This document shows positions 9,214 through 59,918 of a stretch of DNA of 64,000 bases, piece by piece (position 1 is the stretch's first letter; each line of letters begins with the position of its first letter). The translations under genes and the position numbers were made by a program. The notes beneath the pieces were generated by a model. It had not been told where the DNA came from. It did no database searches and saw only the letters and a program-made list of their open reading frames with translations. Location of the stretch: positions 155,558,001 through 155,622,000 of the forward strand of contig OX597816.1 in NCBI GenBank assembly GCA_951406725.2, in the 5' to 3' direction. The stretch is from Octopus vulgaris (Eukaryota).

Positions 9214-9747
9214 TACATACACACACACACATGCATGCGTGCACATACACACATCTTCATGCATACAAATACACATATGGATGCACACCCACGCACATAC
9301 TCCACCGTCCCACATCAATTAGAGGTTGATTGTTTGTCTCAATGACAAGAGACAGAATTGTCTTACCAGAATCCATATGACTATGTTAGTGAAAAGGAGA
9401 AAAATATCTTAATGAAATTATTTCGTCAAATTTTCTATCTTTTAATTACACTTTTAAACATATTTAATGTTTTTTATACTTTTTAATACTGGTATAGTTA
9501 GGATAGCTTTTATTTCAAAGTTGCTTAACATAACACCTGATATATATATATATATTCGATTCAAATTGTTGCTGTCAACTTCGTCCGAAAAATGAATTCC
9601 AGCTAAGCAATTTAATTTAATTCAGCCCGTACCTACCAGAAATGTTTCTGTGCAATTGATTGATCTTTAGTTTCCCCTGTTTATCTCTATTTATGTTATG
9701 ACTTTTACTTTGTTTATTTCAGCCTCACGCCTCGTGTTATATATATG

Positions 9748-10212
9748 TCATAGAAATGGTCTGTGTCCATCGGGTAGCCCTGGCTGAGGGGCATAGGCCG
9801 ATATAATAGTTGCTAGACTATGATGGAGCACTAATCTAATCTTAAGTATTCTGTCACATACTCTGACTACCTCGATTACTTTATCTACCCATTTTTCGGC
9901 GATAAGTATACCCACACCCCCGACCCCGTCAGTATTCCCAGCCCAGAAAATCTTGTACCTCTGTCCTTTGTCTTTGAGAAATCTAGCAGAACCTCCTCTC
10001 CACCTCACTTCTTGAATGCAGCATATATCAATACACCTCCGTTCAAGCAATTCAACGATCTCGCCAGACCTGCCTTTCAGTGTGCCAATGTTGAGGGTGC
10101 CAACCCTGATGGAGTGGGAGGTATTGGCCCTAGTAGCATCATGAACCTGAAAAGAAAACTCGCGTTTGGCAGGATTCATAGACAAACAATAAAACTCAAG
10201 TTCAAACCGCAT
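9748..10212 (-). mobile_element. RTE-clade LINE 5' fragment, AP endonuclease domain (truncated)
   Basis: IRVGTLNIGTL..RRCIDICCIQEVRWRG..GVGILI..TIISAYAPQ APE motifs; truncated by a stop at a repeat junction. Confidence 0.9.
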
Positions 10213-10577
10213 ACACTACACTAACATATCTTGCAATGAATGACCACTACCTTTTATGGAAGGAGATGGGGGTGGCGTAAGACTTTGAAGTGTACATGGG
10301 AGACAACAAGGATGAGAAAATTTAGGACTTCCTGTAGCGGTGGAGGAGGTGGGAGGGCGGGTGCACCCGCGAAAACTAGCAGCCATGTGTGGGCGCCACT
10401 GGTAAGGAATATTGATCAGTAGGTATAAAATAAGGAGCTATAAAATTATAAATATACTTATTCTATATTTAACGAAACGTGAGGCTGATCGATAAAATTA
10501 CGGGGCGAGCTATAGGATTATATATATATTTAACACAAGACATGAGAGAGACAACGATAATTTGAGATGAACTATAT

Positions 10578-10619
<42 letters not shown>

Positions 10620-10719
10620 CAATTGATTGATATGTGCAATTGATTGATCTTTAGTTTCCCCTGTTTATCTCTATTTATGTTATGACTTTTACTTTGTTTA
10701 TTTCAGCCTCGCCTCGTGT

Positions 10720-10750
<31 letters not shown>

Positions 10751-10826
10751 AAAGTAAAAGTCATAACAGAAATAGAGATAAACAGGGGAAACTAAAGATC
10801 AATCAATTGCACATATCAATCAATTG

Positions 10827-10874
<48 letters not shown>

Positions 10875-11239
10875 GTATAGTTCATCTCAAATTATCGTTG
10901 TCTCTCTCATGTCTTGTGTTAAATATATATGTAATCCTATAGCTCGCCCCCTAATTTTATCGATCAGCCTAACGTTTCGTTAAATATAGAATAAGTATAT
11001 TTATAATTTTATAGCTCCTTATTTTATACCTACTGATCAATATTCCTTACCAGTGGCGCCCACACATGGCTGCTAGCTTTCGCGGGTGCACCCGCCCTCC
11101 CACCTCCTCCACCGCTACAGGAAGTCCTAAATTTTCTCATCCTTGTTGTCTCCCATGTACACTTCAAAGTCTTACGCCACCCCCATCTCCTTCCATAAAA
11201 GGTAGTGGTCATTCATTGCAAGATATGTTAGTGTAGCGT

Positions 11240-11704
11240 ATGCGGTTTGAACTTGAGTTTTATTGTTTGTCTATGAATCCTGCCAAACGCGAGTTTTCTT
11301 TTCAGGTTCATGATGCTACTAGGGCCAATACCTCCCACTCCATCAGGGTTGGCACCCTCAACATTGGCACACTGAAAGGCAGGTCTGGCGAGATCGTTGA
11401 ATTGCTTGAACGGAGGTGTATTGATATATGCTGCATTCAAGAAGTGAGGTGGAGAGGAGGTTCTGCTAGATTTCTCAAAGGCAAAGGACAGAGGTACAAG
11501 ATTTTCTGGGCTGGGAATACTGACGGGGTCGGGGGTGTGGGTATACTTATCGCCGAAAAATGGGTAGATAAAGTAATCGAGGTAGTCAGAGTATGTGACA
11601 GAATACTTAAGATTAGATTAGTGCTCCATCATAGTCTAGCAACTATTATATCGGCCTATGCCCCTCAGCCAGGGCTACCCGATGGACACAGACCATTTCT
11701 ATGA
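11240..11704 (+). mobile_element. RTE-clade LINE 5' fragment, AP endonuclease domain (mirror copy)
   Basis: 154 aa ORF identical to 9748-10212 except D>G. Confidence 0.9.
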
Positions 11705-12322
11705 CATATATTATAACACGAGGCGTGAGGCTGAAATAAACAAAGTAAAAGTCATAACATAAATAGAGATAAACAGGGGAAACTAAAGATCAATCAATTG
11801 CACAGAAACATTTCTGGTAGGTACAGGCTGAATTAAATTAAATTGCTTAGCTGGAATTCATTTTTCGGACGAAGTTGACAGCAACAATTTGAATCGAATA
11901 TATATATATATATCAGGTGTTATGTTAAGCAACTTTGAAATAAAAGCTATCCTAACTATACCAGTATTAAAAAGTATAAAAAACATTAAATATGTTTAAA
12001 AGTGTAATTAAAAGATAGAAAATTTGACGAAATAATTTCATTAAGATATTTTTCTCCTTTTCACTAACATAGTCATATGGATTCTGGTAAGACAATTCTG
12101 TCTCTTGTCATTGAGACAAACAATCAACCTCTAATTGATGTGGGACGGTGGGGTATGTGCGTGGGTGTGCATGCATATGTGTATTTGTATGCATGAAGGT
12201 GTGTGTATGTGCACGCATGCATGTGTGTGTGTGTATGTACCATGCTGAGTCAAAAGTTTTTTAAGATTTTCATTAATGAATTTTGGCAACTTGTATCTCC
12301 ATGTTATATTATTAATTTAATA

Positions 12323-17302: not shown

Positions 17303-18614
17303 CACTACGACTGGGTACTGAAACAACTACTGGATCGCTCACAGGTGGATGTGGTATATCTCGACTTTGCGAAGGCCTTTGACAAAGTCGACCACGGAGT
17401 GATATGTCACAAATTACTCAGACTCGGCATAACAGGAAAAGTAGGTGAGTGGATACATGACTTCCTGAAGGACAGAAGCCAGATGGTTGCAGCCAATGGA
17501 GCCCTCTCGGGAAAGACACCAATAGCAAGCGGGGTGCCACAGGGCACAGTCTTGGGACCCTTGCTGTTTTTGGTGGCGCTCTCTGACATGCCCTTGGTAG
17601 CACAAACAACATCCCTCACTAGCTATGCTGATGACACAAAGGTAGCACAGGCAATCAAAAACCCAGCTGATGCTGACCTTTTACAACAAGATCTGGATGC
17701 CATATACAAATGGGCTGAAGACAACAACATGCAATTTAATGCTGGTAAATTTCAAGCCTTACAATATCAAGCTGTAAACACATATACATTACAACACAAC
17801 TATACTGGTCCAGGAGGGATCGAAATCCCAGTATCGAAATCAATACGGGACCTGGGGATAGACATGAGTGACGATGCATCTTTTTCTTCACACATCGCGA
17901 AGGTGGCGACAATGTGCAGACGACTCACTGGCTGGATCCTGAGGACATTCCGGACAAGAGACTGCGAGACCATGTTGACACTATGGAGGACATTTGTCCT
18001 AAGCCGCCTGGACTACTGCTCCCAACTGTGGTCACCGCATAGTGTCAAACTAACCACAGAGCTTGAGACAATCCAAAGACATTTCACCAAGAGGATTTCC
18101 ACCATGAAAGAAAAGAACTATTGGGAGAGGCTTAGGGAACTCAATTTGTACTCCTTGGAACGAAGACGAGAGAGATATGCAGTGATATACATATGGAAAA
18201 TCCTGGAGGGACTAGCACCAAATTTTGGAATTGAGAGCTGTTCCAATCCCCGTACAGGACGTCACTGTGTGGTGCCAAAGGTCCCGTCTTCCACATCCAG
18301 GGTAAGGAGCAGATACTGTAATAGCCTGGGGTTCAGGGGCCCTCAGCTTTTCAACAAACTGCCAAGAAAACTAAGAGATCTACATGATGCGGATGTGGAC
18401 ATTTTCAAAAAACATCTAGACAAGCTGCTTTCCGGGATCCCAGATGAACCCACTGCAAGGTACGAAGGTAACCTAAGGGCAGCAGCTACAAACTCTCTCT
18501 TAGATCAGTGGCCAGCCACGGCAAACTGGACTTAGAGGGTAGCAACAAGGGCGGTGCCCCAGCATGGCCTCAGCCGGATGGCTGAAACAAGTAAAAGAGT
18601 AAAGAGTAAAGAGT
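17303..18614 (+). mobile_element. CR1/L2-group LINE: intact reverse transcriptase C-terminal ORF plus 3'UTR
   Basis: Uninterrupted frame from the gap to stop 18535: YLDFAKAFDKVDH, GVPQGTVLGPLLF, YADDTK, RDLGI, LDYCSQLWSP, LYSLERRRERY; tail CCAGCATGGCC..CTGAAACAAGT(AAAGAGT)n. Confidence 0.95.
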
Positions 18615-19023
<409 letters not shown>

Positions 19024-19942
19024 TCTCTCCGCATCGATATCCAGCTCTCTCACCACCACCGCCTTCTTTAAACCTACGGATTCCCACCTCTATCTCAACT
19101 TCTCTTCCTCCCACCCCTTCCACACCAAACGAGCCATCCCCTACTCCCAGTTCCTCCGCCTCCGACGTTTGTGCAGCCGCGACCAGGATTTCGAGACCCA
19201 ATCTCAATACCTGGCCCGCATGTTACTCCGAGGTTACCCACCCACACTCCTCTCTGATGCCCTCACCCGCGCCCGTCGCATCGACCGCACTACCGCCTTG
19301 TCTCCTTCCCCCCGCCCACCCCCCAACCGCACCCCCTTCCCCCTCCTTTTCCACCCCTCTACCCTACCCCCTTCGTCGCAAGATACTACGTGCCTTCCGT
19401 CGCCTCCAGCTTGATCCCACCACCCGCCCCATTTTCCCTAACCCACCCCTGTCCTCTTTCAAACGAGCCCGCAATCTGCGTGACCTCCTGGTCCACAGCA
19501 CCCTCTCTCCTTCCCCCTCAGCCCCACACGGATCATTCCCTTGCTCTAGATCCCGCTGCAACACTTGCCCTTCATCACCAACACCACCGCTGTCACCGGC
19601 TCCAACCTGCATACTGTACGCATTAGGCACTCTTTTACGTGCACCTCGTCTGGCCTTATTTACTGCATTAAATGCAACCTATGCGGGATGCTGTATGTAG
19701 GTCAGACGGGACGCCGGTTGTCCGACCGTTTCATTGAACACTTGAGGGACGTTCGCCTACACTCTTTTTCTCCCGTCGCACGCCACTTCCGCTCGGCCGG
19801 CCATTCCCGAGATGACATCTCAGTGTTTGGTCTCGCCCCCCACAATGGTCGCCCACTTTCCAGGCTCCACTTGGAGCAACGCTACATCTTCACCCTACAA
19901 ACTACCACCCCACACGGACTTAACACAGCCCCCTCCTCTTGA
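19024..19942 (+). mobile_element. Penelope-like element, 5'-truncated ORF (RT thumb, linker, GIY-YIG endonuclease), frameshifted
   Basis: [38 protein letters not shown]; [12 protein letters not shown]; CSRSRCNTC; [40 protein letters not shown]. Confidence 0.95.
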
Positions 19943-23991: not shown

Positions 23992-24041
<50 letters not shown>

Positions 24042-24042
24042 T

Positions 24043-24097
<55 letters not shown>

Positions 24098-24130
24098 TAT
24101 TTGTGTGTGTGTGTATGTGTATGTATATAT

Positions 24131-24203
<73 letters not shown>

Positions 24204-24219
24204 TATGTATGTATGTATA

Positions 24220-24262
<43 letters not shown>

Positions 24263-24265
24263 GTG

Positions 24266-24308
<43 letters not shown>

Positions 24309-24324
24309 ATATATATGTATGTAT

Positions 24325-24365
<41 letters not shown>

Positions 24366-24371
24366 TATATG

Positions 24372-24407
<36 letters not shown>

Positions 24408-24686
24408 TGTATGTATATATATATGTATGTATATATATATGTATGTATATATATATATGTATGTATATATATATATATGTATGTGTATATATATATATAT
24501 GTATGTATATATATATGTATGTATATATATATATGTATGTATATATATATATGTATATATATATATGTATGTATGTGTGTGTGTGTGTATGTATATATAT
24601 ATATGTATGTATATATATATATGTATGTATATATATATATATGTATGTATATATATATATGTATGTATATATATATATATATGTAT

Positions 24687-24722
<36 letters not shown>

Positions 24723-24793
24723 GTATGTATATATATATATGTGTATATATATATATGTATATATATATGTATGTATATATATATATGTGTATG

Positions 24794-24830
<37 letters not shown>

Positions 24831-24865
24831 GTGTATGTATATATATATATGTGTATGTATATATA

Positions 24866-24906
<41 letters not shown>

Positions 24907-25026
24907 ATGTATATATATATGTATATATATATATCTATGTGTATGTATATATATATATATGTATATATATATCTATATTTATCTATATATATATGTATAT
25001 GTATATATGTATATATATGTATATGT

Positions 25027-25060
<34 letters not shown>

Positions 25061-25125
25061 GTATATGTATATATGTATATATATGTATATGTATATATAT
25101 GTATATGTATATATGTATATATATG

Positions 25126-25156
<31 letters not shown>

Positions 25157-25397
25157 GTATATGTATATATATGTATATGTATATATATATGTATATGTAT
25201 ATATATGGATATCTATATGTATATGTATATATATATGTATATGTATATATATGTATATCTATATGTATATGTATATATATATATGTATATGTATATATAT
25301 GTATATGTATATATATATGTATATGTATATATATATATGTATATGTATATATATGTATATGTATATATATATGTATATGTATATATATATATATGTG

Positions 25398-25431
<34 letters not shown>

Positions 25432-25587
25432 TATGTATATGTATATATATATGTATATGTATATGTATATGTATATATATATGTGTATATGTATATGTAT
25501 ATATATATGTGTATATGTATATGTATATATATATGTGTATATGTATATGTATATATATATGTGTATATGTATATGTATATATATATG
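23052..25587. repeat. ~2.5 kb (TA/TG) complex microsatellite
   Basis: TATG/TGTA/TG repeats. Confidence 0.95.
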
Positions 25588-26330
25588 ATTGATTGATTGA
25601 TTGATTGATTCTAGTTTCAGCTTATGAGCTGTGGCCATGCTGGGGCACCGCCATTTGGTGTTGCTACTTGGTTTCACTTCATGGAGGCTTTCTAGCAACT
25701 GCTATTTGGTGCATGAGAGAGTTCGATGCAGCTGCCCTCATCTGCCCCTCCTGCCGTGAAGTTGGTTCATCTGGGACACCTGACAGGAAGAGATCCAGCT
25801 TCATTTTAAAGACATCTGTATCCACCCCATGCAGGTCTCTCAGGTTCTTCGGGATGATATTGAAGAGCTGTGGGCCTCGGAAGCCCAGGCTATCACAGAA
25901 TCTTGTCCTACATCTTGATGGCAGGTTTGGAGTCCTAGGCACCACGCAGTGGCGCCCAGTTCTGGCATTTGCGTAACTCTCGATGCCAAAGTTCAGGACA
26001 CTTCCTCCAGGATCTTCCAGATGTATATTATGGCATATCTTTCCCGCCTACGCTCCAGGGAATATAATTTTAATCTCTTGAGTCTTTCCCAGTAGCTTAC
26101 ATTCTGCATAGAGGCTATCTTCTTTGTGTAGCTTCGTTGGATCGCCTCAAGTTCTGTGATCAACTTGACACTGGATGGTGACCATAGCTGAGAGCAATAG
26201 TCAAAGTGGCTTAGGACAAGTGTCTTCCATAGGACCATCATGGTTTCTTGTTCTCTTGTTCTAAAGGTTCTAAGAATCCATCCAGCCAGCCGTCTACATT
26301 TCATTGTCAGTTTAGCAACATGTACATGAG
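25588..26330 (-). mobile_element. CR1/L2-group LINE 3' fragment (sister subfamily of 17303-18614)
   Basis: ORFs 25993-26304 and 25679-25945: DYCSQLWSP, LYSLERRRERY, SLGFRGPQLFN, PDEPT; (TCAA)n tail. Confidence 0.92.
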
Positions 26331-27175
26331 AAGGTCATATATATACATATATATACATATATATGTGTATATATATGGTCATATATATACATATATATAT
26401 GAAAGGTCATATATATACATATATATACATATATATGTGTATATATACATATACACATATATGTGTATATATATGTATATGTATATATATGTATATGTAT
26501 ATATATGTATATGTATATATATATATATGTATATGTATGTATATGTATATATATATGTATATGTATATATATATATATGTATATGTATGTATATGTATAT
26601 ATATATGTATATGTATATGTATATATATATGTATATATATATGTATATGTATATATATATGTATATGTATATATATATGTATATATATATGTATATGTAT
26701 ATATATATGTATATATATATATATGTATATATATATGTATATATGTTATATAAAAGGGCTTAGTAAAATAAATTACTTTGCCGCATACTCAACTCATTAG
26801 AAATAGCAGCTAAAAAAACTTTTTTAAAGCTATTTCTAATACTTAAAGAAAATCTCTCTCATATAGTGTTTGCTTAACTCAACTCACAAAAGTTTACTCA
26901 ACTCTCTTTTTTAAAGCTATTTCTAATACTTAAAGAAAATCTCTCTCATATAGTGTTTACTTAACTCAACTCACAATGCTTCGGATTTTACCGAAATAAG
27001 CATAGTGTTTGATGATTTTAACCCACGCTGGTGGAAAGGGGAGAACAGAAATTCTTCGCTTGCTTATTTGAGTTTGTTGGCACTGTTAGTTACGAACAGA
27101 TCTTCGAAAAGCGATGAGAAGCCGAAAGGGTATGTTCTTACTTTCAGTGTTTTCAAATCCAAACCAAGGAGTTTC

Positions 27176-27227
27176 TGAGCTGATGATAGAAGTGTCGTTT
27201 TGACTAATCTTGAAACGTACGTTCTCA
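27176..27227 (+). ncRNA. Minimal type I hammerhead ribozyme, copy 1
   Basis: TGAG-CTGATGA-TAGAAGTGTC(GTTTT)GACTAATCTT-GAAA-CGTACG-TT-CTCA: canonical core, stem I TGAG/CTCA, palindromic ACGTACGT stem III, predicted cleavage after 27223. Confidence 0.8.
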
Positions 27228-27729
27228 AATAACCTTTGCATTTGATTTTTTGATGTCCTTACCCCCAAACTTTTGTGAGTTGAGTTAAGCAAACACTATA
27301 TGAGAGATTTTCTTTGAAAGTATTAGAAATAAAAAAGTTTTTTTAGCTGCTATTTCTAATGAGTTCAGTATGCGGCAAAGTAATTTATTTTACTAAGCCC
27401 TTTATATAATGTAATAATTTGAATTCGCCTTAAATGGTCCCTTTGCATACTGAACACTTGGTGAAATTGATTAATAATTAATTAATTTTACCCTCAATTG
27501 TTGAAATTATAATTAATCTCCCTCTAATTAATGCTTCGGATTTTACCGAAATAAGCATAGTGTTTGATGATTTTAACCCACGCTGGTGGAAAGGGGAGAA
27601 CAGAAATTCTTCGCTTGCTTATTTGAGTTTGTTGGCACTGTTAGTTACGAGCAGATCTTCGAAAGCGATGAGAAGCCGAAAGGGTATGTTCTTACTTTCA
27701 GTGTTTTCAAATCCAAACCAAGGAGTTTC

Positions 27730-27781
27730 TGAGCTGATGATAGAAGTGTCGTTTTGACTAATCTTGAAACGTACGTTCTCA
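27730..27781 (+). ncRNA. Minimal type I hammerhead ribozyme, copy 2
   Basis: Identical to 27176-27227; predicted cleavage after 27777. Confidence 0.8.
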
Positions 27782-27830
27782 AATAACCTTTGCATTTGAT
27801 TTTTTGATGTCCTTACCCCCAAACTTTTGT

Positions 27831-30735
<2,905 letters not shown>

Positions 30736-31009
30736 AAAATTTGTAAGTGTAAATTATTTAAATAACTTTTAAAATTTTAACTTTAATTTATATATTTTAA
30801 TTTGGAATTTTATATTTTTTGTATTCATATTTTATATTTTTTTAATTAATTTTTTTCTGTGTATTGGCTTATGATTTTCACCGTTTGATTTGCCTAATAG
30901 TGGTTTTATCTCTAATTTAATATAATATATACTTATACTATATTAAATTGGATTTAATCCTAAATCTAATATTTCCCTGTAAGTTTGGATTTACTCCCTA
31001 ATATTATTA

Positions 31010-35311: not shown

Positions 35312-38300
35312 CACGTTGCCTGCCACAGGATAGTGATATGATCTGTTTCTATTTGCCAAAAGGGTTTTATTAACTTTCTCAAATCAGAAAGCTGAAATAT
35401 TTTGTGTGATGGTGTATAGATACATAATACATGTACGTACACTACAATGATGTGAAATGAGTTATCTCGTAGCAATGCAAAGTGCTCAGATTGATTTGCT
35501 ATGAAGGCTTTGAAGGTATGTTATTTATTATTTGACTGTCTTTTTATTGTATAATGTTTTATTTTTTCAGATTTATAAAGAACTATTAAAAATTTTGATT
35601 TGTAATATATAAGATGCCAAAAAGCCTCTCCAATGAAATAATTGCTGGAATGCTTCAGGAACTCAAGGAAAATGAACTATTGGAAGGTGATATCTTAGAG
35701 ACTGAGAGTGAATACTCAGATGCTTTGGATAAAAATTATATTGCTTATACCAGTGGAAGTAACACTAGTGACGCCAGTTCTACTAACAAAGATGAACAAT
35801 TAGTTGCTCAAGGTTATAAGAGACAATGCAGTTCTCTTGCACCAACTGCACCAAGTTCTCCGGCACCAACTGCATTGACATCTAATACTTGGTCAAATGC
35901 AGTGACAAATCCACCTAATTTTCTCTTCATCGCAACTGAAGATTCAACTCAACACTAACACTATAGGAGAAGTTATCGACCAATTCCTGACAGATGAATT
36001 TTGGACTGTATTAGTTGAGGAAACTAATGCTTATGTTATACAGATATTAAATCAACAGCAAGGTCTTGTATGAAGATCATCTCAGTTCAAAGAGTGGCAC
36101 ACAACAAATGTGACAGAAATGTAGTGTTTCTTTGGCCTGATGTTACAAATGGGTACATGTCCCAAACCATCTGTAGAAAGTTATTGGTCCACTAACATTT
36201 TATACAAATCTCCTCTTTTTCCTTCTGTAATGAGCCAGAATCATTTTCAGTTGCTGCTCCAATTTCTTCATTTTTCAAACAAGGAAGAAGAATGGTGATA
36301 ATTAGCATAAAATTAATCCCATTTTTAGATATTTCAATAACTGTGTGTATCAAGTGGTATTGTTCAAAAAATTCTCATCTATTCAGGAAAGTAAATACTC
36401 CAACTGGCATCTTGGGGCATTCAGGTCAAGTTGTTCTTAGTCTGATGGATGAGTTCTTTGATAAAGGTTATATTCTGTACACAGATAATTACTACAACTC
36501 TGTTCCTTTGACAAAAGCAATGTCACAGCGATCTACATATATATGTGGAACTCTAGGCTTACCCAAAAAGACAACCTCAAGAATTTGGTAAAAAATGGAT
36601 AAGATCAGACGAAGTAGTTGTGTGCAAATGGAAAGACAAGAGAGACTTATTGACAACTAGCAGTATAACCTGGCCTTGCCTGGGATTAAGTTATGATTAT
36701 TAAGCTAATCAAGTTCTTTATTTCAAACCAAACTAAGTAATATAGACATCAAATTTGGGTGAAATCCATTGAAATTAGTTATATTATGTATATATATATA
36801 TATATTTATTATATAATTATAATATAATATAAATATATATGGGCAACAGACACGAACACACATAAACACACGTACGTATGTACACCTATTGCATGTTTTG
36901 TGCATGCATACATGTTCATAAACAGAAATGAATGGAAAAAATGTTAAATTTGTAGATTAAAACTCGCACAATTTTCACTAAGAAAAAAGATCGTTTTTTT
37001 TTTTTTTCTTTTGCATGGAATCAACTACTCTGGCCTCAAAACCCTTTTTGTGGTCTGTGAAATGGAGTGGGGTGTGGTGGAAGCCTCGCAAATTGTACCC
37101 ATTTATATTGTGTAATTTACTGACAACTTGTTACTCACCTCTTTGTTTCTTTGTTGTTAAATAATGGATTGTCAACAAAACACTTTTTACTCGACGTAAA
37201 ATAAAAACAAAACTCTTTCACACCCAAAGTAATGTGTGAGAGAGAGAGGTGGGGGGGAGAAAGATGAACGATTTAAATTAAATAAATGATTTTAAAATAA
37301 ATATATTGTAATTGTTGTGTGAGAAAGTATATATATTATGGTTATAAAATATAGTGTGCTTTCAAAAACAAAAAACAAAACATTTTATTTTTTTATGAAC
37401 GTAGTCACTCTCTCTCTCTTTCACTTTATCTTTCCCGTGAAACTCTCTGCCTCCTTCTTCCACTTTTCTTTATCTTATTTTTTTTTGTTAGATGCCATCA
37501 AAAAGCAATGGCTGATATTTGTTATGGTTAAAAGCTATGGCTGAAAATAGATTTTTACCATATCCGTGGGTGCCTTGGGAAAAAAATAAGTTGACAAAAC
37601 CTAGATAGGATGTTGACAAATGTACTCCTAAAATTTGAGCGACATGAGTGCTAATTTGTGGATGTGCATAAATCACAATCACGTATACACATCCTCCTTT
37701 TTATAGATATGATTAGTAATATGCACCAAGTGGAAATAGTAAATGGGATAAATTGTAATGGAAAAAAACCCCAAAGAAGCCCAATATTGGAAGAGATTAT
37801 AACAATGGTATGTCAGGAGTAGATAGATCAGATCAAATGCTTTCCTATTATTCTTGTCCTTGGAAACACTCCATTGGTACAAGAAAACTGGTCTACACAT
37901 CTTTGAAATTCTCATCTATGATGCCCACAAGTTGTTTTGCAAAGTAGAAAACACAGTAGAAAATACTCAAATGAAACTTGTAAAGATAATGTAGTGCTGC
38001 ATGTGCTTGGTGAACATATATGAAAAGAAACTCCAGTTCCAGGAGTAGATTTCCATTACTTGGAAGCAATTCTACCTACAGAAAAGAAACAAAGGCCAAC
38101 CAAACCATGTAGGGTGTGCAGAGGAAAGAAACTTCGTAAAGAAACTAGGTATGTTTATTCTGCATTATAGACATTATGTCTATAATTTTTTGAATAAACA
38201 TGTTTTCTTTTATTTCAATTTAGTTAGAAAAGGAATAAAAATAGGTTCCAATTATAAGCTTCAATAACAAAATATTTTTCAGTAATCTTTCTGTATTTTT

Positions 38301-45861: not shown

Positions 45862-45956
45862 TTTTTCACTTTCCTGAAGAGAAGATTGCATTGTTTATAC
45901 CATTTATTCTTTTGAATAGTATCTGTGGAATTTTCGAAACATGTCGAAAGTAAAAA
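45862..45956 (+). ncRNA. Minimal type I hammerhead ribozyme with canonical core and long stem II
   Basis: ACTTTC-CTGAAGA-GAAGATT..(TATTC/GAATA)..AATTTTC-GAAA-CATG-TC-GAAAGT: perfect 6 bp stem I, palindromic ACATGT stem III, GUC cleavage triplet at 45943-45945. Confidence 0.85.
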
Positions 45957-48984: not shown

Positions 48985-49817
48985 TACACACACCACACAC
49001 ACACTTATCTTCACGCATATATATATATGTGTGTGTGTGTGTTTGTACAGATGCAGACATTCATGCACACACACAAACACACACACAAATATATATCAGT
49101 AAAAATATATTAAAAGTAAGCTGGAACAAATCCAATATAGTGCTTTAAAGCTGGAATTCTAAGGTCAAATCCAAAGCAAGTCTGTGTAAGTATTAGATAT
49201 ATGGTGCAAATACGATGAACAACAAATAGAACAACACTGAAAAGCAGTGCTTGGCAAATAGGGTATTAGCTTATTGCTTTAATGGAAAGACAAAGAGCTG
49301 CTGGATTTCAATTAATCCTTCCTCAGAAGAAAGAAAGAAAGAAAGAAAGATTAGAGAAAATGAGAAAGAGAAATGGTCAGTGAGAAAGAAGATACTGGGT
49401 GAAGGATTAAAAACTAGGTGTGAATGCTGCTATAAAAGGGTGAGTTAAGCAGAGAGGGAGAGGTGGATGTGTAGGTGTAAGTGTAAGAACATCTTGGAAG
49501 TGGACATAAGAGGGTAGTGATGTGTGTGTGTGCATGTAGAATTCGTACAGTTTTCTTATATTTTGAAATTTTAGTTTAAACCTTGATACTTTCTTAAAAA
49601 TAACATTTCCACCTCCCTTCACAACTTATACATACATGCACATCAATAACACTAGCCACCTTGATACACACATGCACACACTCACACACATATACACACA
49701 AAAGTGTGAATGTACATGCAGCCCTGTATATGTGCATACACACACACACAAACACAGATTGATATCTTTCCTCCCTCACACTTGGTCTCACCTCCTCACA
49801 TACATGCTTTCATGCCC

Positions 49818-51245
49818 CTACTTCTCTATACATATATATATGTATGTATATAGTGAGAATTTACATATATATATATGTATATAGTGAGAATTCACAAAAA
49901 AAACGAAAAACAAAGACAGGTGTGTAAACAACAAACAGATGTATTAGTTTAACGCTTGGGAAGTGAGAAAGTCTTTCAAGTTTCGAGCCTACACTCTTCG
50001 ACAGAAAGGAACACAGAAATAAACAGAGAGAGAAAATAGAAAATGGTTTAGTGGCTAGCAATCTATCATCATTTCGAGTACCAAAGAAAATTGATGTAGA
50101 GCAGCTAAAGCAACCACAAGTTTTGCAGTTGTTTCAGAAGAGATGCAGCAATATTCATTTTGAAGGTTCATGGCAATCTTTCCGTGATGGAATATATAAA
50201 ATGAGATCAGAGGTGTTAGGTTTTAAGAGGAGACAACACTGAGACTGGTTTGATTCCAATGATACAGTGATAAATGAGCTTTTTTCAACAAAGAGGTCCA
50301 TTCGTGAAAAGCTTCTTGACCCAAACGTTAAGAACAAAGTGCCACTAGAAAAGTTGTACAAGTCTCAGAAAGCAGACTTGCAAAAAAAGAACTCAGGAGA
50401 CTTAAAGACACTTGATGGAGAAATTTGTCTGAGGAAGAACATGCAGCCCTGTATATGTGACAGGAAAGACATTAAAAGTTTCTATAGTTTATTGCGGCAA
50501 ACTTTTGAACCACAATCTTCATCTACTTCTCTATACATATATATATATGTATGTATATAGTGAGAATTTACATATATATATATGTATATAGTGAGAATTT
50601 ACATATATGTATATAGTGAGAATTCACAAAAAAAACGAAAAACAAAGACAGGTGTGTAAACAACAAACAGATGTATTAGTTTAACGCTTGGGAAGTGAGA
50701 AAGTCTTTCAAGTTTCGAGCCTACACTCTTCGACAGAAAGGAACACAGAAATAAACAGAGAGAGAAAATAGAAAATGGTTTAGTGGCTAGCAATCTATCA
50801 TCATTTCGAGTACCAAAGAAAATTGATGTAGAGCAGCTAAAGCAACCACAAGTTTTGCAGTTGTTTCAGAAGAGATGCAGTAATATTCATTTTGAAGGTT
50901 CATGGCAATCTTTCCGTGATGGAATATATAAAATGAGATCAGAGGTGTTAGGTTTTAAGAGGAGACAACACTGAGACTGGTTTGATTCCAATGATACAGT
51001 GATAAATGAGCTTTTTTCAACAAAGAGGTCCATTCGTGAAAAGCTTCTTGACCCAAACGTTAAGAACAAAGTGCCACTAGAAAAGTTGTACAAGTCTCAG
51101 AAAGCAGACTTGCAAAAAGAACTCAGGAGACTTAAAGACACTTGATGGAGAAATTTGTCTGAGGAAGAACAGGCAGCCTGTGACAGGAAAGACATTAAAA
51201 GTTTCTATAGTTTATTGCGGCAAACTTTTGAACCACAATCTTCAT
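49818..51245. repeat. Tandem duplication, ~710-730 bp unit (49818-50523 / 50524-51245)
   Basis: Duplicated ORFs 49861-50061/50599-50793 and 50051-50242/50783-50974. Confidence 0.95.
49973..50008 (-). ncRNA. Degenerate hammerhead motif in a PLE terminal fragment (copies at 50705-50740 and 53390-53424)
   Basis: Minus: CTTT-CTGTCGA-A-GAG(TGTAGG)CTC-GAAA-CT-TG-AAAG; same architecture and similar downstream tail to 892-926, but A6>U and a non-cleavable UG triplet. Confidence 0.5.
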
Positions 51246-52232
51246 CATCATATGTTCCCTTGAAGTCGAAAGATGGAAATGAGATTATTAAAGATCCTCC
51301 TGGAATAATGAATAGATGGACATCTGGTTGTATTTTTAATTTGACCCGGTTTAACTGCAAGGCAAAGACTTTCCAAATACTTGTAAGAGAATTACTTTAT
51401 GCTGATGCTGCTGATTTGTTGGCACACTCAGAGGGGGATATGCAACATTTAATGGACAGATTTTCCACTGCATGTGTACATTTCAGACTTACAATTAGTT
51501 TGGGGAAAACCAAAGTAATGTTTACTCCCATGCCAGGACAAACATATTCTGAACCAAACATTTTTGCGAATGGAACAAGGTTAGAACTTGTTGACACTTT
51601 TGTTTACCTAGGAAGCAAGTTATCAAGAGATAGTAGTTTTGATGCAGACATATGCTTTCCAATAGGGATGTGTTAGGGTTAGAGTACGGTTAGGGTTAGA
51701 GTAATGCCTGGGAGGAAAAGATGATTCAGCACTCTGAACTTAAAAGGACCTGTCGTAAAGGAACTATTCGAACCATAATCAACAGTGAACATTGGGTGTG
51801 TATTATATGTGACTGTGTTCTGTTGTCAAAAGCAGGATACGTGAATCATATGAGAAATACTTAGAGGAACAAATTTCACAATAGCAGGTTTTCATAGATT
51901 TAACTAAGGCATTTGACACGGTAAACAGGGAGGCACTGTGGGTTGTTTTGTGTAAACTTGGTTGTCCAACACATTTTGTGAGCATTTTTAAAGAACTACA
52001 CAGAAACATGAAAACTCAGGTAGTCTTTAATGGTGACCTACCTCATGAATTGGTCAACAACGGTATCACACAGGGTGATATTTCTGACCCTACAGGTGTG
52101 TGTGTTGATAGAACAGCTATCATCTCCTTTGGTATGCTTTCAAGGACTGCAACAGGAAATCAGAATCAGATTTTGGACATCTTGTCGTATTTTTAATTTG
52201 ACCCGGTTTAACTGCAAGGCAAAGACTTTCCA
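50060..52232 (+). mobile_element. Rearranged RTE LINE remnants
   Basis: VRELLYADAADL..LTISLGKTKVM..FVYLGS (51155-51676); FIDLTKAFDTVNREALW..LCKLGCP..QG (~51890-52090). Confidence 0.9.
51672..51702 (+). repeat. Short telomere-like (TTAGGG/TTAGAG) tract
   Basis: GTTAGGGTTAGAGTACGGTTAGGGTTAGAGTA. Confidence 0.55.
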
Positions 52233-52245
52233 GGATCCAATATAT

Positions 52246-53913
52246 AGCTACATGTATAAAGCTGATGTTGTCTGTGTGTGGCAAGTTTGGTAGCCTTCAA
52301 CTAACACTATCTCCTCCGAGACCCTGCAGTGCAAGTTGACCAAAATTTGACAGTATGATAGGAGAAGACTTGCTCTTCATTCTGTAGAACAAATTCAAAT
52401 CAGACCATGTTAAGACCAAAAATTATTTACATCAAAAAGGTGCTTTTTTTCTATGAAAATCCCTCTTTTTTACGATGTTTTGACTGCTGTGTCGCTATTT
52501 TTTAGTGTATTTCAACCAGAAAAATGTTCACTTAAAGAGAATAACAAGCTACATAGTTGAATGAGAAGATGCAATAGTAACGGCGTATCTTTTTTATCGG
52601 TTTAAGTGATTCTTATTTGTGGGTATGCCAGTCATAGAAGTTGTGCAATCTGCATGCTGTTACTATCTACGATGTTCAGGTCAAACCTTCAATGGGTATG
52701 TTTTGATTTTACAGATGTTTTTTAGTTATACATGATGTAAAATAGTTGATTTTATTCATTTTACAGGTACAACCACGATTCATGTTGCCTACCTGTTTGG
52801 CTTTAAAATAACATTTTTGTATTTTTTTTTGTAACCACAAACTGTTCTTACTAAGATTAGAGAAAAGAAAGATTAGAGAAAATGAGAAAGAGAAATGGTC
52901 AGTGAGAAAGAAGATAGTGGACATAAGAGGGTAGTGATGTGTGTGTGTGCATGTAGAATTCGTACAGTTTTCTTATATTTTGAAATTTTAGTTTAAACCT
53001 TGATACTTTCTTAAAAATAACATTTCCACCTCCCTTCACAACTTATACATACATGCACATCAATAACACTAGCCACCTTGATACACACATGCACACACTC
53101 ACACACATATACACACAAAAGTGTGAATGTACATGCAGCCCTGTATATGTGCATACACACACACACAAACACAGATTGATATCTTTCCTCCCTCACACTT
53201 GGTCTCACCTCCTCACATACATGCTTTCATGCCCCTACTTCTCTATACATATATATATGTATGCATATAGTGAGAATTTACATATATATATATGTATATA
53301 GTGAGAATTCACAAAAAAAACGAAAAACAAAGACAGGTGTGTAAACAACAAACAGATGTATTAGTTTAACGCTTGGGAAGTGAGAAAGTCTTTCAAGTTT
53401 CGATCTACACTCTTCGACAGAAAGGAACACAGAAATAAACAGAGAGAGAAAATAGAAAATGGTAGATGTAAAATAGTTGATTTTATTCATTTTACAGGTA
53501 CAACCACGATTCATGTTGCCTACCTGTTTGGCTTTAAAATAACATTTTTGTATTTTTTTTTGTAACCACAAACTGTTCTTACTAACGTTTTGGAGTTTCC
53601 TGTACTTTTTCTTAATGAATACTGTTGCAGTATTAACTTCTTAATAGATTTTCAGTGCAGTTTGAAACTTCATTTTGCTTTAAATCTACAGGTAATTTTT
53701 TTCTCCATAATGTTAATAGAAGGAATATTTAACCAACAATTGAAGTTGGCATTACACATTTGCAGCACATTCAGAGCAAACTCGAGTATCGCCACACTAT
53801 ACTTTTATTCATAGATTGAAACTATGTCAAAACTTTGTTAATGCGACATCAAAGTCTACCGTTTTAAGCGCAACTAAAAAACAATCCCGAGCGATGCTGG
53901 GCTATACTGCTAG
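52246..53913 (+). mobile_element. Non-autonomous Helitron carrying an inserted local copy (52855-53464)
   Basis: 5' CTACATGTATAAAGCTG..GTCTGTGTGTGGC similar to the Helitron at 47825-48221; 3' hairpin CCCGAGC(GAT)GCTGGG then CTAG|T at 53910-53914. Confidence 0.7.
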
Positions 53914-55128: not shown

Positions 55129-55194
55129 GTTAAAACTAGCTATTTCTCTACCATAAGAAAATTTTCTTATGGTAGAGAAAAAGCTAGTTTTAAC
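55129..55194. repeat. 66 bp near-perfect palindrome
   Basis: GTTAAAACTAGCTATTTCTCTACCATAAGAAAA / TTTTCTTATGGTAGAGAAAAAGCTAGTTTTAAC, one mismatch, no spacer. Confidence 0.95.
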
Positions 55195-59423: not shown

Positions 59424-59918
59424 TCATCATCATTGTTTAACGTCCGCTTTCCATGCTAGCATGGGTTGGACGATTTGACTGAGGACTGGCGAACCAGATG
59501 GCTGCACCAGGCTCCAATCTTGATTTGGCAGAATTTCTACAGCTGGATGCCCTTCTTAATGCCAACCACTGGGTGTAGTGGGTACTTTTATATGCCACCG
59601 GCACGAGGGCCAGTAAGGCAGTACTGGCAACGGTCACAGAAAAATTGTTTTTTTTTTTTTGTTTTCTTATGTAACACCTGCACACCGGCACAAGTGCCAG
59701 TAAGGCGACGTTGGTAATGAACATGCTCAAATGGTGCTTTTTACGTGCCACCGGCACGAACGCCAGTTAGCTGCTCTGGCAACGATCACGCTCGGATGGT
59801 GCTCTTAGTGCTCCACTAGCATGGATGCCAGTCATTCATGCTAGTGGAGCACTAAGAGCACCATCCGAGCATGATCGTTGCCAGAGCAGCCAACTGGCAT
59901 TCGTACTGGTGGCACGTA
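59424..59918 (-). mobile_element. RTE 3'UTR with 5' foldback inversion
   Basis: (CAT)n..TTAACGTCCGCTTTCCATGCTAGCATGGGTTGG; 59742-59823 inverted at 59837-59918. Confidence 0.9.

Follow-up and report, generated by a model that had tools for sequence, protein, structure and literature searches.

Non-LTR retrozymes of animals, their occurrence in a mollusc and their proposed origin from PLEs have already been described (PMC7229834; bioRxiv 10.64898/2026.07.22.740005). Metazoan non-LTR retrozymes are described there as low-GC tandem units that are free of ORFs and each carry a single type I hammerhead, with a strongly folding monomer and co-occurring PLEs, and they are known in a mussel. Here we report on a locus of Octopus vulgaris which shares these features and which lies in a stretch of 64,000 nt, analysed as a whole and called the window below. 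Its unit of 555 nt is larger than the retrozymes of about 170-400 nt in PMC7229834 and falls inside the range of 51-972 given in the preprint. The hammerhead is of the minimal PLE type, whereas retrozymes of coral and mussel carry the canonical type (PMC7229834). Also unlike known retrozymes, the insertion in the window has a PLE-style inverted arm, and the unit is known from its sequence alone. Judged at that level, and with the folding-energy filter of the preprint left aside, it falls under the preprint's definition of a retrozyme, that is two consecutive type I hammerhead units (bioRxiv 10.64898/2026.07.22.740005). By title and abstract, we found no published cephalopod retrozyme; the supplement of PMC7229834 may list more taxa, and Repbase or Dfam may already catalogue the family. 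In the giant squid genome, 235 loci of Rfam hammerhead_1 have been reported (PMC6962438).

The second group of relatives is formed by the PLEs themselves. Minimal hammerheads of PLE pLTRs (PMC4209133) combine a short stem I, a long stem II and a palindromic 15.2-16.2 region with U-rich 5' flanks, AU-rich 3' flanks and a predicted dimer-only activity, and the motifs of our locus are alike in all these points; they differ in that the G10.1-C11.1 pair is missing and that no RT/GIY-YIG ORF lies between them. PLEs characteristically insert into microsatellites as partial tandems, next to which lies a 5'-truncated copy in inverted orientation; a tail of 30-40 bp may be present (PMC8557442). In A. 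vaga, Penelope with two direct pLTRs and one inverted pLTR moved an unrelated gene in trans, and its pLTR has a two-way TATA motif (PMC3846280). The PAc protein of Anolis, a predicted dimer, cuts and extends both strands; its reverse transcription starts inside its own RNA, the tail being the stretch between two start sites, and insertion in vitro needed no hammerhead cleavage (PMC11167929). With such endonuclease-bearing or non-autonomous PLEs (PMC3846280; Naiad/Chlamys including MRC1, PMC8557442; PAc, PMC11167929) our locus has in common the partial tandem with an inverted 5' copy, two unlike outer ends, a microsatellite target, a two-way TATA motif and non-coding content that appears to be mobilised in trans. 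The extension between the two ends measures 133 nt here as against 30-40 there. Furthermore, the inverted arm is here almost entirely made up of this extension, and sites that are polymorphic in the family distinguish it from the plus arm; in both respects it is unlike its counterparts in the PLEs described. Naiads and most Chlamys have no canonical hammerheads (PMC8557442).

We interpret the locus as a member of a family of non-LTR retrozyme type that has been mobilised in trans by PLE machinery, and put the probability of this reading at roughly 0.7. What is directly observed is the unit with its tandem junction and numerous variants, together with the anatomy of the insertion. The plus arm (26975-27830, + strand), 856 nt long and terminating in (TA)n on the right, repeats the 555-nt unit head to tail 1.54 times. 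Its direct repeat, put at about 300 bp in a preliminary description of this DNA that had also noticed two identical motifs in it at 27176 and 27730, is 302 bp long with 99.3% identity by self-blastn (A1, 26975-27276, and A2, 27530-27830, both +, with 2 differences). Because the whole unit and the end-to-start junction recur across sequencing runs, this repeat is the overlap of the tandem copies and no special terminal repeat. The two predicted cuts are 554 nt apart, as originally stated, and delimit a monomer (27224-27777, +) with about 33% GC. Downstream of A1 come the stretch of 133 nt that separates the insertion ends (27277-27409, +), which might play a tail-like role and which is closed by a TATA-like motif legible on both strands (27403-27409), and the AT-rich rest of the unit with its 15-bp hairpin (27410-27529, +), which is family-wide and was covered in 4/4 of the runs mapped in detail. 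The other small hairpins mentioned in the preliminary description are present in the sequence as well.

The inverted arm lies upstream and is made of two pieces, both on the minus strand. The outer piece (26746-26895) copies the unit segment 27267-27409 (92.1% over 152 columns, self-blastn), and its outer end meets the left (TA)n tract. The inner piece (26896-26976) is a second partial copy, of 27273-27331 plus about 20 nt (by self-blastn, 26918-26976 matches 27273-27331 inverted), and joins the plus arm head-to-head with a 2-nt overlap; within the arm, 26819-26889 and 26906-26976 form an internal duplication (98.6%). An inverted partial copy had been anticipated at this place. It does exist, but it lacks a hammerhead, shares only some 10 nt with the direct repeat, and is derived from the segment just downstream of that repeat. 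Both ends of the element sit in (TA)n, again as previously noted: the left flank is (TA)n/(TATG)n (26337-26745) and the right one (TA)n-rich (27831-29500; examined to 29500, with low GC extending further). These flanks, to which no strand is assigned, are both microsatellite and presumably represent the target; no TSD is legible at the locus, and a repeat search over 24000-31000 was dominated by (TA)n.

A splice-donor-like motif (27274-27280, +) is situated at the plus-arm end, and pyrimidine runs resembling acceptors follow 70-95 nt further down (27338-27369). Introns near the pLTR occur in some PLEs, and no splicing joint was found among the junctions listed for the unit in four public runs. 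Elsewhere in the window there are short DNA palindromes at 55129-55194 and 59742-59918, the former adjoining a weak 75% match to 27341-27401.

When the 555-nt stretch 26975-27529 was used as a query against public runs, it was present in 20/24 runs listed, from 10 studies and with four organism labels; 3 of these runs contain at least half of the query words, and no positive run listed is on record as RNA. Four of the 20 positive runs, from four studies, were mapped in detail: X1, X11, X3 and X18 (organisms A, B, A and D, respectively), X1 being possibly the source of the window itself. All 30 bins of the unit were covered in 4/4 runs, by 4139, 1636, 170 and 8 contigs, and the tandem junction 27529->26975 was likewise seen in 4/4, the shorter side measuring 31, 22, 45 and 196 letters (same order). 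Across the family, indels that shift the frame (1, 2, 4 and 5 nt) occur frequently throughout the unit. Thousands of polymorphic contigs occurred in the DNA runs (4139 and 1636); as depth is not equal to copy number, we claim only that there are many copies. The unit is thus a many-copy polymorphic repeat family across several species, probably octopods, and the proposed check of copies and tandem structure turned out positive in this respect.

Two of the mapped runs, RNA by software guess, cover both the unit and the junction, and their contigs cannot separate RNA from DNA or circle from tandem. In organism D, a 492-nt contig runs 27224->27529->26975->27170, and judging by its overlaps with a 114-nt contig of X18, the two would seem to form a closed cycle of about 546 nt, which a circle, a tandem transcript and tandem DNA fit equally well. 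The start of the organism D contig exactly at 27224 was considered as evidence of cleavage and rejected, given that two other contigs run through the site, with an overlap of about 30 nt. The start can be explained by a branch of the assembly graph, from which a variant at or near H17 can be inferred. No accumulation of ends was reported for these runs, a signal that contigs are unable to display. In our estimate, circle formation by family members in vivo has slightly less than an even chance.

The hammerhead motifs occupy 27176-27227 and 27730-27781 (both +) and have the same sequence. Either has a stem I of UGAG/CUCA, the core CUGAUGA (at 27180 and 27734), a stem II region of 25 nt, GAA, U as H17, and a stem III that is the 8-nt palindrome ACGUACGU (27215-27222 in the first motif), whose duplex is predicted at -9.8 kcal/mol; the cuts are predicted at GUU, between 27223/27224 and 27777/27778. 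Position names (N7, G10.1-C11.1, H17) follow the hammerhead numbering which we take to apply to these motifs. Both contain the arrangement CUGANGA...GAAA...UH with stem I and the palindromic stem III. The motif agrees with the published consensus of minimal hammerheads apart from the G10.1-C11.1 pair, which is highly conserved in that group, yet not invariant (PMC4209133). The pair is absent here, being replaced by U.U, or by A-U if one U is taken as an extra base.

Searches with hammerhead models, which had been suggested for this locus, gave a divided result. A strict scan of the window, with a pattern written after the motif had been seen, returned 4 matches, namely the two flagged motifs, 45874 (+) and 63528 (-), while shuffled windows gave a single match in 3/200 and more than one in 0/200. 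On the other hand, Rfam covariance models gave 6 matches at E<=10 with no hammerhead among them; across 24000-31000, the best 150 of 185 Rfam matches were all miRNA and driven by the microsatellite. A pattern scan of viral contigs gave 0 matches, one of prokaryote genomes 12, and one of metagenomes 1 (L001). In blastn of the element against these 13 loci, L001 alone matched, over 16 nt only; lacking stem I, it was rejected as a chance match.

The two remaining matches in the window concern separate motifs. The one at 45868-45952 (+) is a second type I hammerhead, unrelated to the flagged pair and present as a single copy adjoining (TA)n; with a stem I of 6 bp, a long stem II with a G-C closing pair, the palindrome ACAUGU and a GUC site, it seems closer to the canonical form than the flagged motifs do. 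A third, hammerhead-like motif at 63532-63481 (-), with GC-rich stem II and near-palindromic stem III, is single and probably decayed.

The unit is predicted to be strongly structured. The monomer has an MFE of -138.4 kcal/mol (z -4.60; as good in 0/100 shuffles) and the circular fold of 26975-27529 a z of -4.58, the minus strand being also strong (z -3.34); among 29 low-repeat tiles of the window taken as a control (12 shuffles each), the minimum z was -2.74 and 0/29 reached -4.5. In this minimum-energy fold, a rival hairpin sequesters GAAA together with the palindrome. For 27100-27830, in a model without tertiary contacts and without a positive control, forming the active double hammerhead costs 15.4 kcal/mol relative to the minimum and forming two single hammerheads costs 23.4 kcal/mol, so that the double form is 8 kcal/mol better. 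The idea of a retrozyme unit with PLE mobilisation, already put forward in the preliminary description, is borne out in its ORF-less hammerhead family of about 554 nt, its junction and its Penelope-type anatomy; the energetic cost of the active dimer counts against activity. The features behind the accompanying reservation about activity, U-U at the base of stem II and the GUU site, are both present in the motif, and GUU is a weak hammerhead cleavage site. The ribozyme of the copy at the window locus looks weak, and it is doubtful that this copy would cleave well.

Variation within the family bears on the same question. None of the 52 variant sites listed, in a listing that stopped short of 15 further rows, hits the 25 positions of core, stem I and stem III; this sparing of the core reached only P=0.08 unit-wide and P=0.007 solely in a window picked afterwards. 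The varying core position is N7 (A in 3/4 runs, C in one loose end), which in hammerheads tolerates substitution. At the base of stem II, U->G was found at 1.8-52% of depth and U->A in one loose end; either change restores the pair, and G.U and A-U versions of this base accordingly occur in the family. Of 48 substitutions, 40 were listed, with 20 unpaired, 11 keeping a pair and 9 breaking one; the 9/40 pair-breaking changes compare with 13.6 expected (P=0.05, weighted 0.058), so that stem covariation, another of the proposed checks, is borderline. Two of the 9 listed pair-breakers have a listed partner change. At 27096/27135, most of the family has G-C, as against A-U in A1 and G.U in A2, and the apparently compensatory pair 27006/27295 shows the joint change in X18, not in X1 (47% vs 3.5% of depth).

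An alternative that we consider unlikely is a PLE-derived satellite or short repeat with a dead relic hammerhead, copied from uncut tandem transcripts or amplified at the DNA level, without circles. It would agree with the weak stem II base, the GUU site, the rival hairpin and the insignificant unit-wide core conservation. It would also agree with the finding that 8/9 of the Xenopus retrozyme dimers assayed did not cleave (bioRxiv 10.64898/2026.07.22.740005), and PAc inserts without cleavage (PMC11167929). Against a dead ribozyme speak the positions of the listed variants, which are found at N7, in loop II and at sites compatible with wobble pairing, and some of which restore the stem II base pair, as well as the conservation of the whole unit over the three organism labels mapped. 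Moreover, an axolotl hammerhead with U.U at the base of stem II does cleave (PMC7229834).

The retrozyme-type reading was also compared with what is expected of other element classes. The reading frames of the unit are 30-91 aa long, Pfam matches are all sub-threshold, and 11 PLE-type proteins showed no significant similarity to the element in tblastn (best E 1.4), in keeping with the original statement that there is no recognisable ORF. Neither an ORF search nor tblastn found an RT and GIY-YIG ORF between the motifs, and few contigs leave the unit. In the SINE test we found 0 tRNA genes and no B box, that is, nothing of a tRNA-derived SINE. The following features of non-LTR retrozymes are found: a type I hammerhead per tandem unit, no coding capacity, GC <50%, a stable predicted fold and multiple copies. 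The element is neither an autonomous PLE nor a tRNA SINE. As for PLE-type insertion, the partial tandem, the adjacent inverted 5'-truncated copy and the microsatellite target are all found; the optional PLE tail of 30-40 bp is not, the two ends being 133 nt apart.

One might also suppose that an autonomous PLE inserted 5'-truncated copies here on a single occasion and that truncation produced the spacing of 555 nt by accident. The anatomy exactly matches partial tandems with an inverted copy of PLEs (PMC8557442, PMC3846280), whose pLTRs are marked by minimal hammerheads (PMC4209133). In that case, the junction 27409/27410 should be unique to the locus, yet contigs bridge both it and 27276/27277 in X11 (organism B) and X18 (organism D). 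Every part of the unit is covered in all mapped runs, and the share of contigs exiting into unlike sequence is 0, 0, 0.02 and 0.4 in X1, X11, X3 and X18, that is, next to nothing in the DNA runs; the missing similarity to PLE proteins argues in the same direction. The recurrence of the family together with the near absence of exits from the unit therefore indicates a repeat family rather than a one-off fragment of an autonomous PLE, and the possibility, raised at the outset, that the unit is always the pLTR of such an element did not hold in these data. We regard the one-off reading as largely refuted and very improbable; a rare autonomous parent element would escape these contig tables. A non-autonomous element with an incidental hammerhead, moved by a LINE RT or by a Helitron-type rolling circle, is barely credible, for although LINE RT fragments are present in the window and rolling-circle DNA elements also show tandem partial arrays and AT-rich targets, the unit has no tRNA, no B box and, apart from its flanks, no tail of poly(A) or simple repeats, and the head-to-head inverted arm, the two unlike outer ends and the minimal hammerhead are features of PLEs (PMC8557442, PMC3846280, PMC4209133).

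The window contains several further repeats. An open LINE RT fragment of 410 aa (17303-18532, +) adjoins an N gap, and its inverted relative (25715-26244, -; 70% identical) lies just left of the hammerhead locus; the closest named relative of the LINE RT protein is from Argonauta hians (63%), with one further sequence at 75%, which by itself would make an octopod host likely. Rearranged LINE fragments at 49350-53590 include duplications of 627 bp (98%) and of 328 bp and 121 bp (100%), due to either recent duplication or misassembly. At 9286-12167, two arms that both contain endonuclease/exonuclease/phosphatase fragments form a near-perfect palindrome of 2.9 kb (97%), perhaps a LINE piece folded back on itself or else an artefact of assembly. 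A fragment of a piggyBac-type transposase (DDE_Tnp_1_7, E 1.9e-08) was detected at 36196-36588 (+).

The footprint of the insertion, an inverted arm head-to-head with the 856-nt plus arm within (TA)n, offers some insight into how a retrozyme-type unit might have been inserted by PLE machinery. Mapped on the unit, the outer ends fall at 27409 and 27276, where in either case a few bases agree with the microsatellite, and the inverted pieces start at 27267 and 27273, 3-9 nt from the plus-arm end. A1 and A2, which differ at 2/302 sites, have the minority alleles at 27064, 27135 and 27139 in common; this suggests that they stem from sister units or from a single template traversed more than once. 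The inverted arm, in turn, has 5 differences from the plus-arm segment, 4 of them at family-polymorphic indel sites (27301, 27316, 27331 and 27400). Since these differences fall mostly on such sites, the inverted arm was probably derived from a second template, as judged from this single locus.

A PLE fragment is present in the same window at about 19025-19942 (+). It is 5'-truncated and frameshifted, comprises the RT thumb, a Cys-rich linker and GIY-YIG, begins in (TA)n and is followed by CA-rich repeats; by the description of the linker in PMC8557442, it may be called Neptune-like. Naiads of octopus prefer (TA)n targets and have long been inactive in cephalopods (PMC8557442). The Neptune-like fragment and Naiads are both candidate donors of the machinery; no autonomous PLE with sequence in common with the unit was identified, and no sequence link of the unit to the fragment or to Naiads emerged.

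We propose the following model. Tandem copies would be transcribed from the + strand, and the palindromes of neighbouring hammerheads would pair and cut at GUU, thereby freeing a structured monomer of about 554 nt, which a host ligase may circularise; transcription and cleavage may perhaps be limited to some family members. A PLE RT/GIY-YIG protein would then nick both strands of AT-rich DNA, with priming inside the RNA at two points, the unit positions 27276 and 27409. The plus arm would represent one cDNA running more than once round the unit, whereas the other cDNA would halt near 27270 and give the inverted arm, the two cDNAs being finally joined head-to-head.

A more far-reaching version of the model, to which we assign a rather remote chance, assumes that octopod species carry an abundant 555-nt ribozyme RNA circle and that a dimeric PLE protein copies two RNAs at once, held together by the palindromic stem III, both target strands being primed at fixed internal sites 133 nt apart. 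It is based on the inverted arm with its family alleles unlike those of the plus arm and its two stops 3-9 nt from the plus-arm end. If this were true, minimal hammerheads would be RNA-dimerisation signals, and the locus would provide direct footprint evidence that PLEs mobilise animal retrozymes.

With the retrozyme-type family described here, a probable cephalopod example is added to the animal retrozymes, a class already established. The enzyme that moves animal retrozymes and the role of minimal hammerheads in PLEs are both stated to be open in the literature (PMC7229834, PMC7761336, bioRxiv 10.64898/2026.07.22.740005). A many-copy family without ORFs and with a PLE footprint makes both questions testable from genome data, namely from insertion ends, arm alleles and selection on the hammerhead core.
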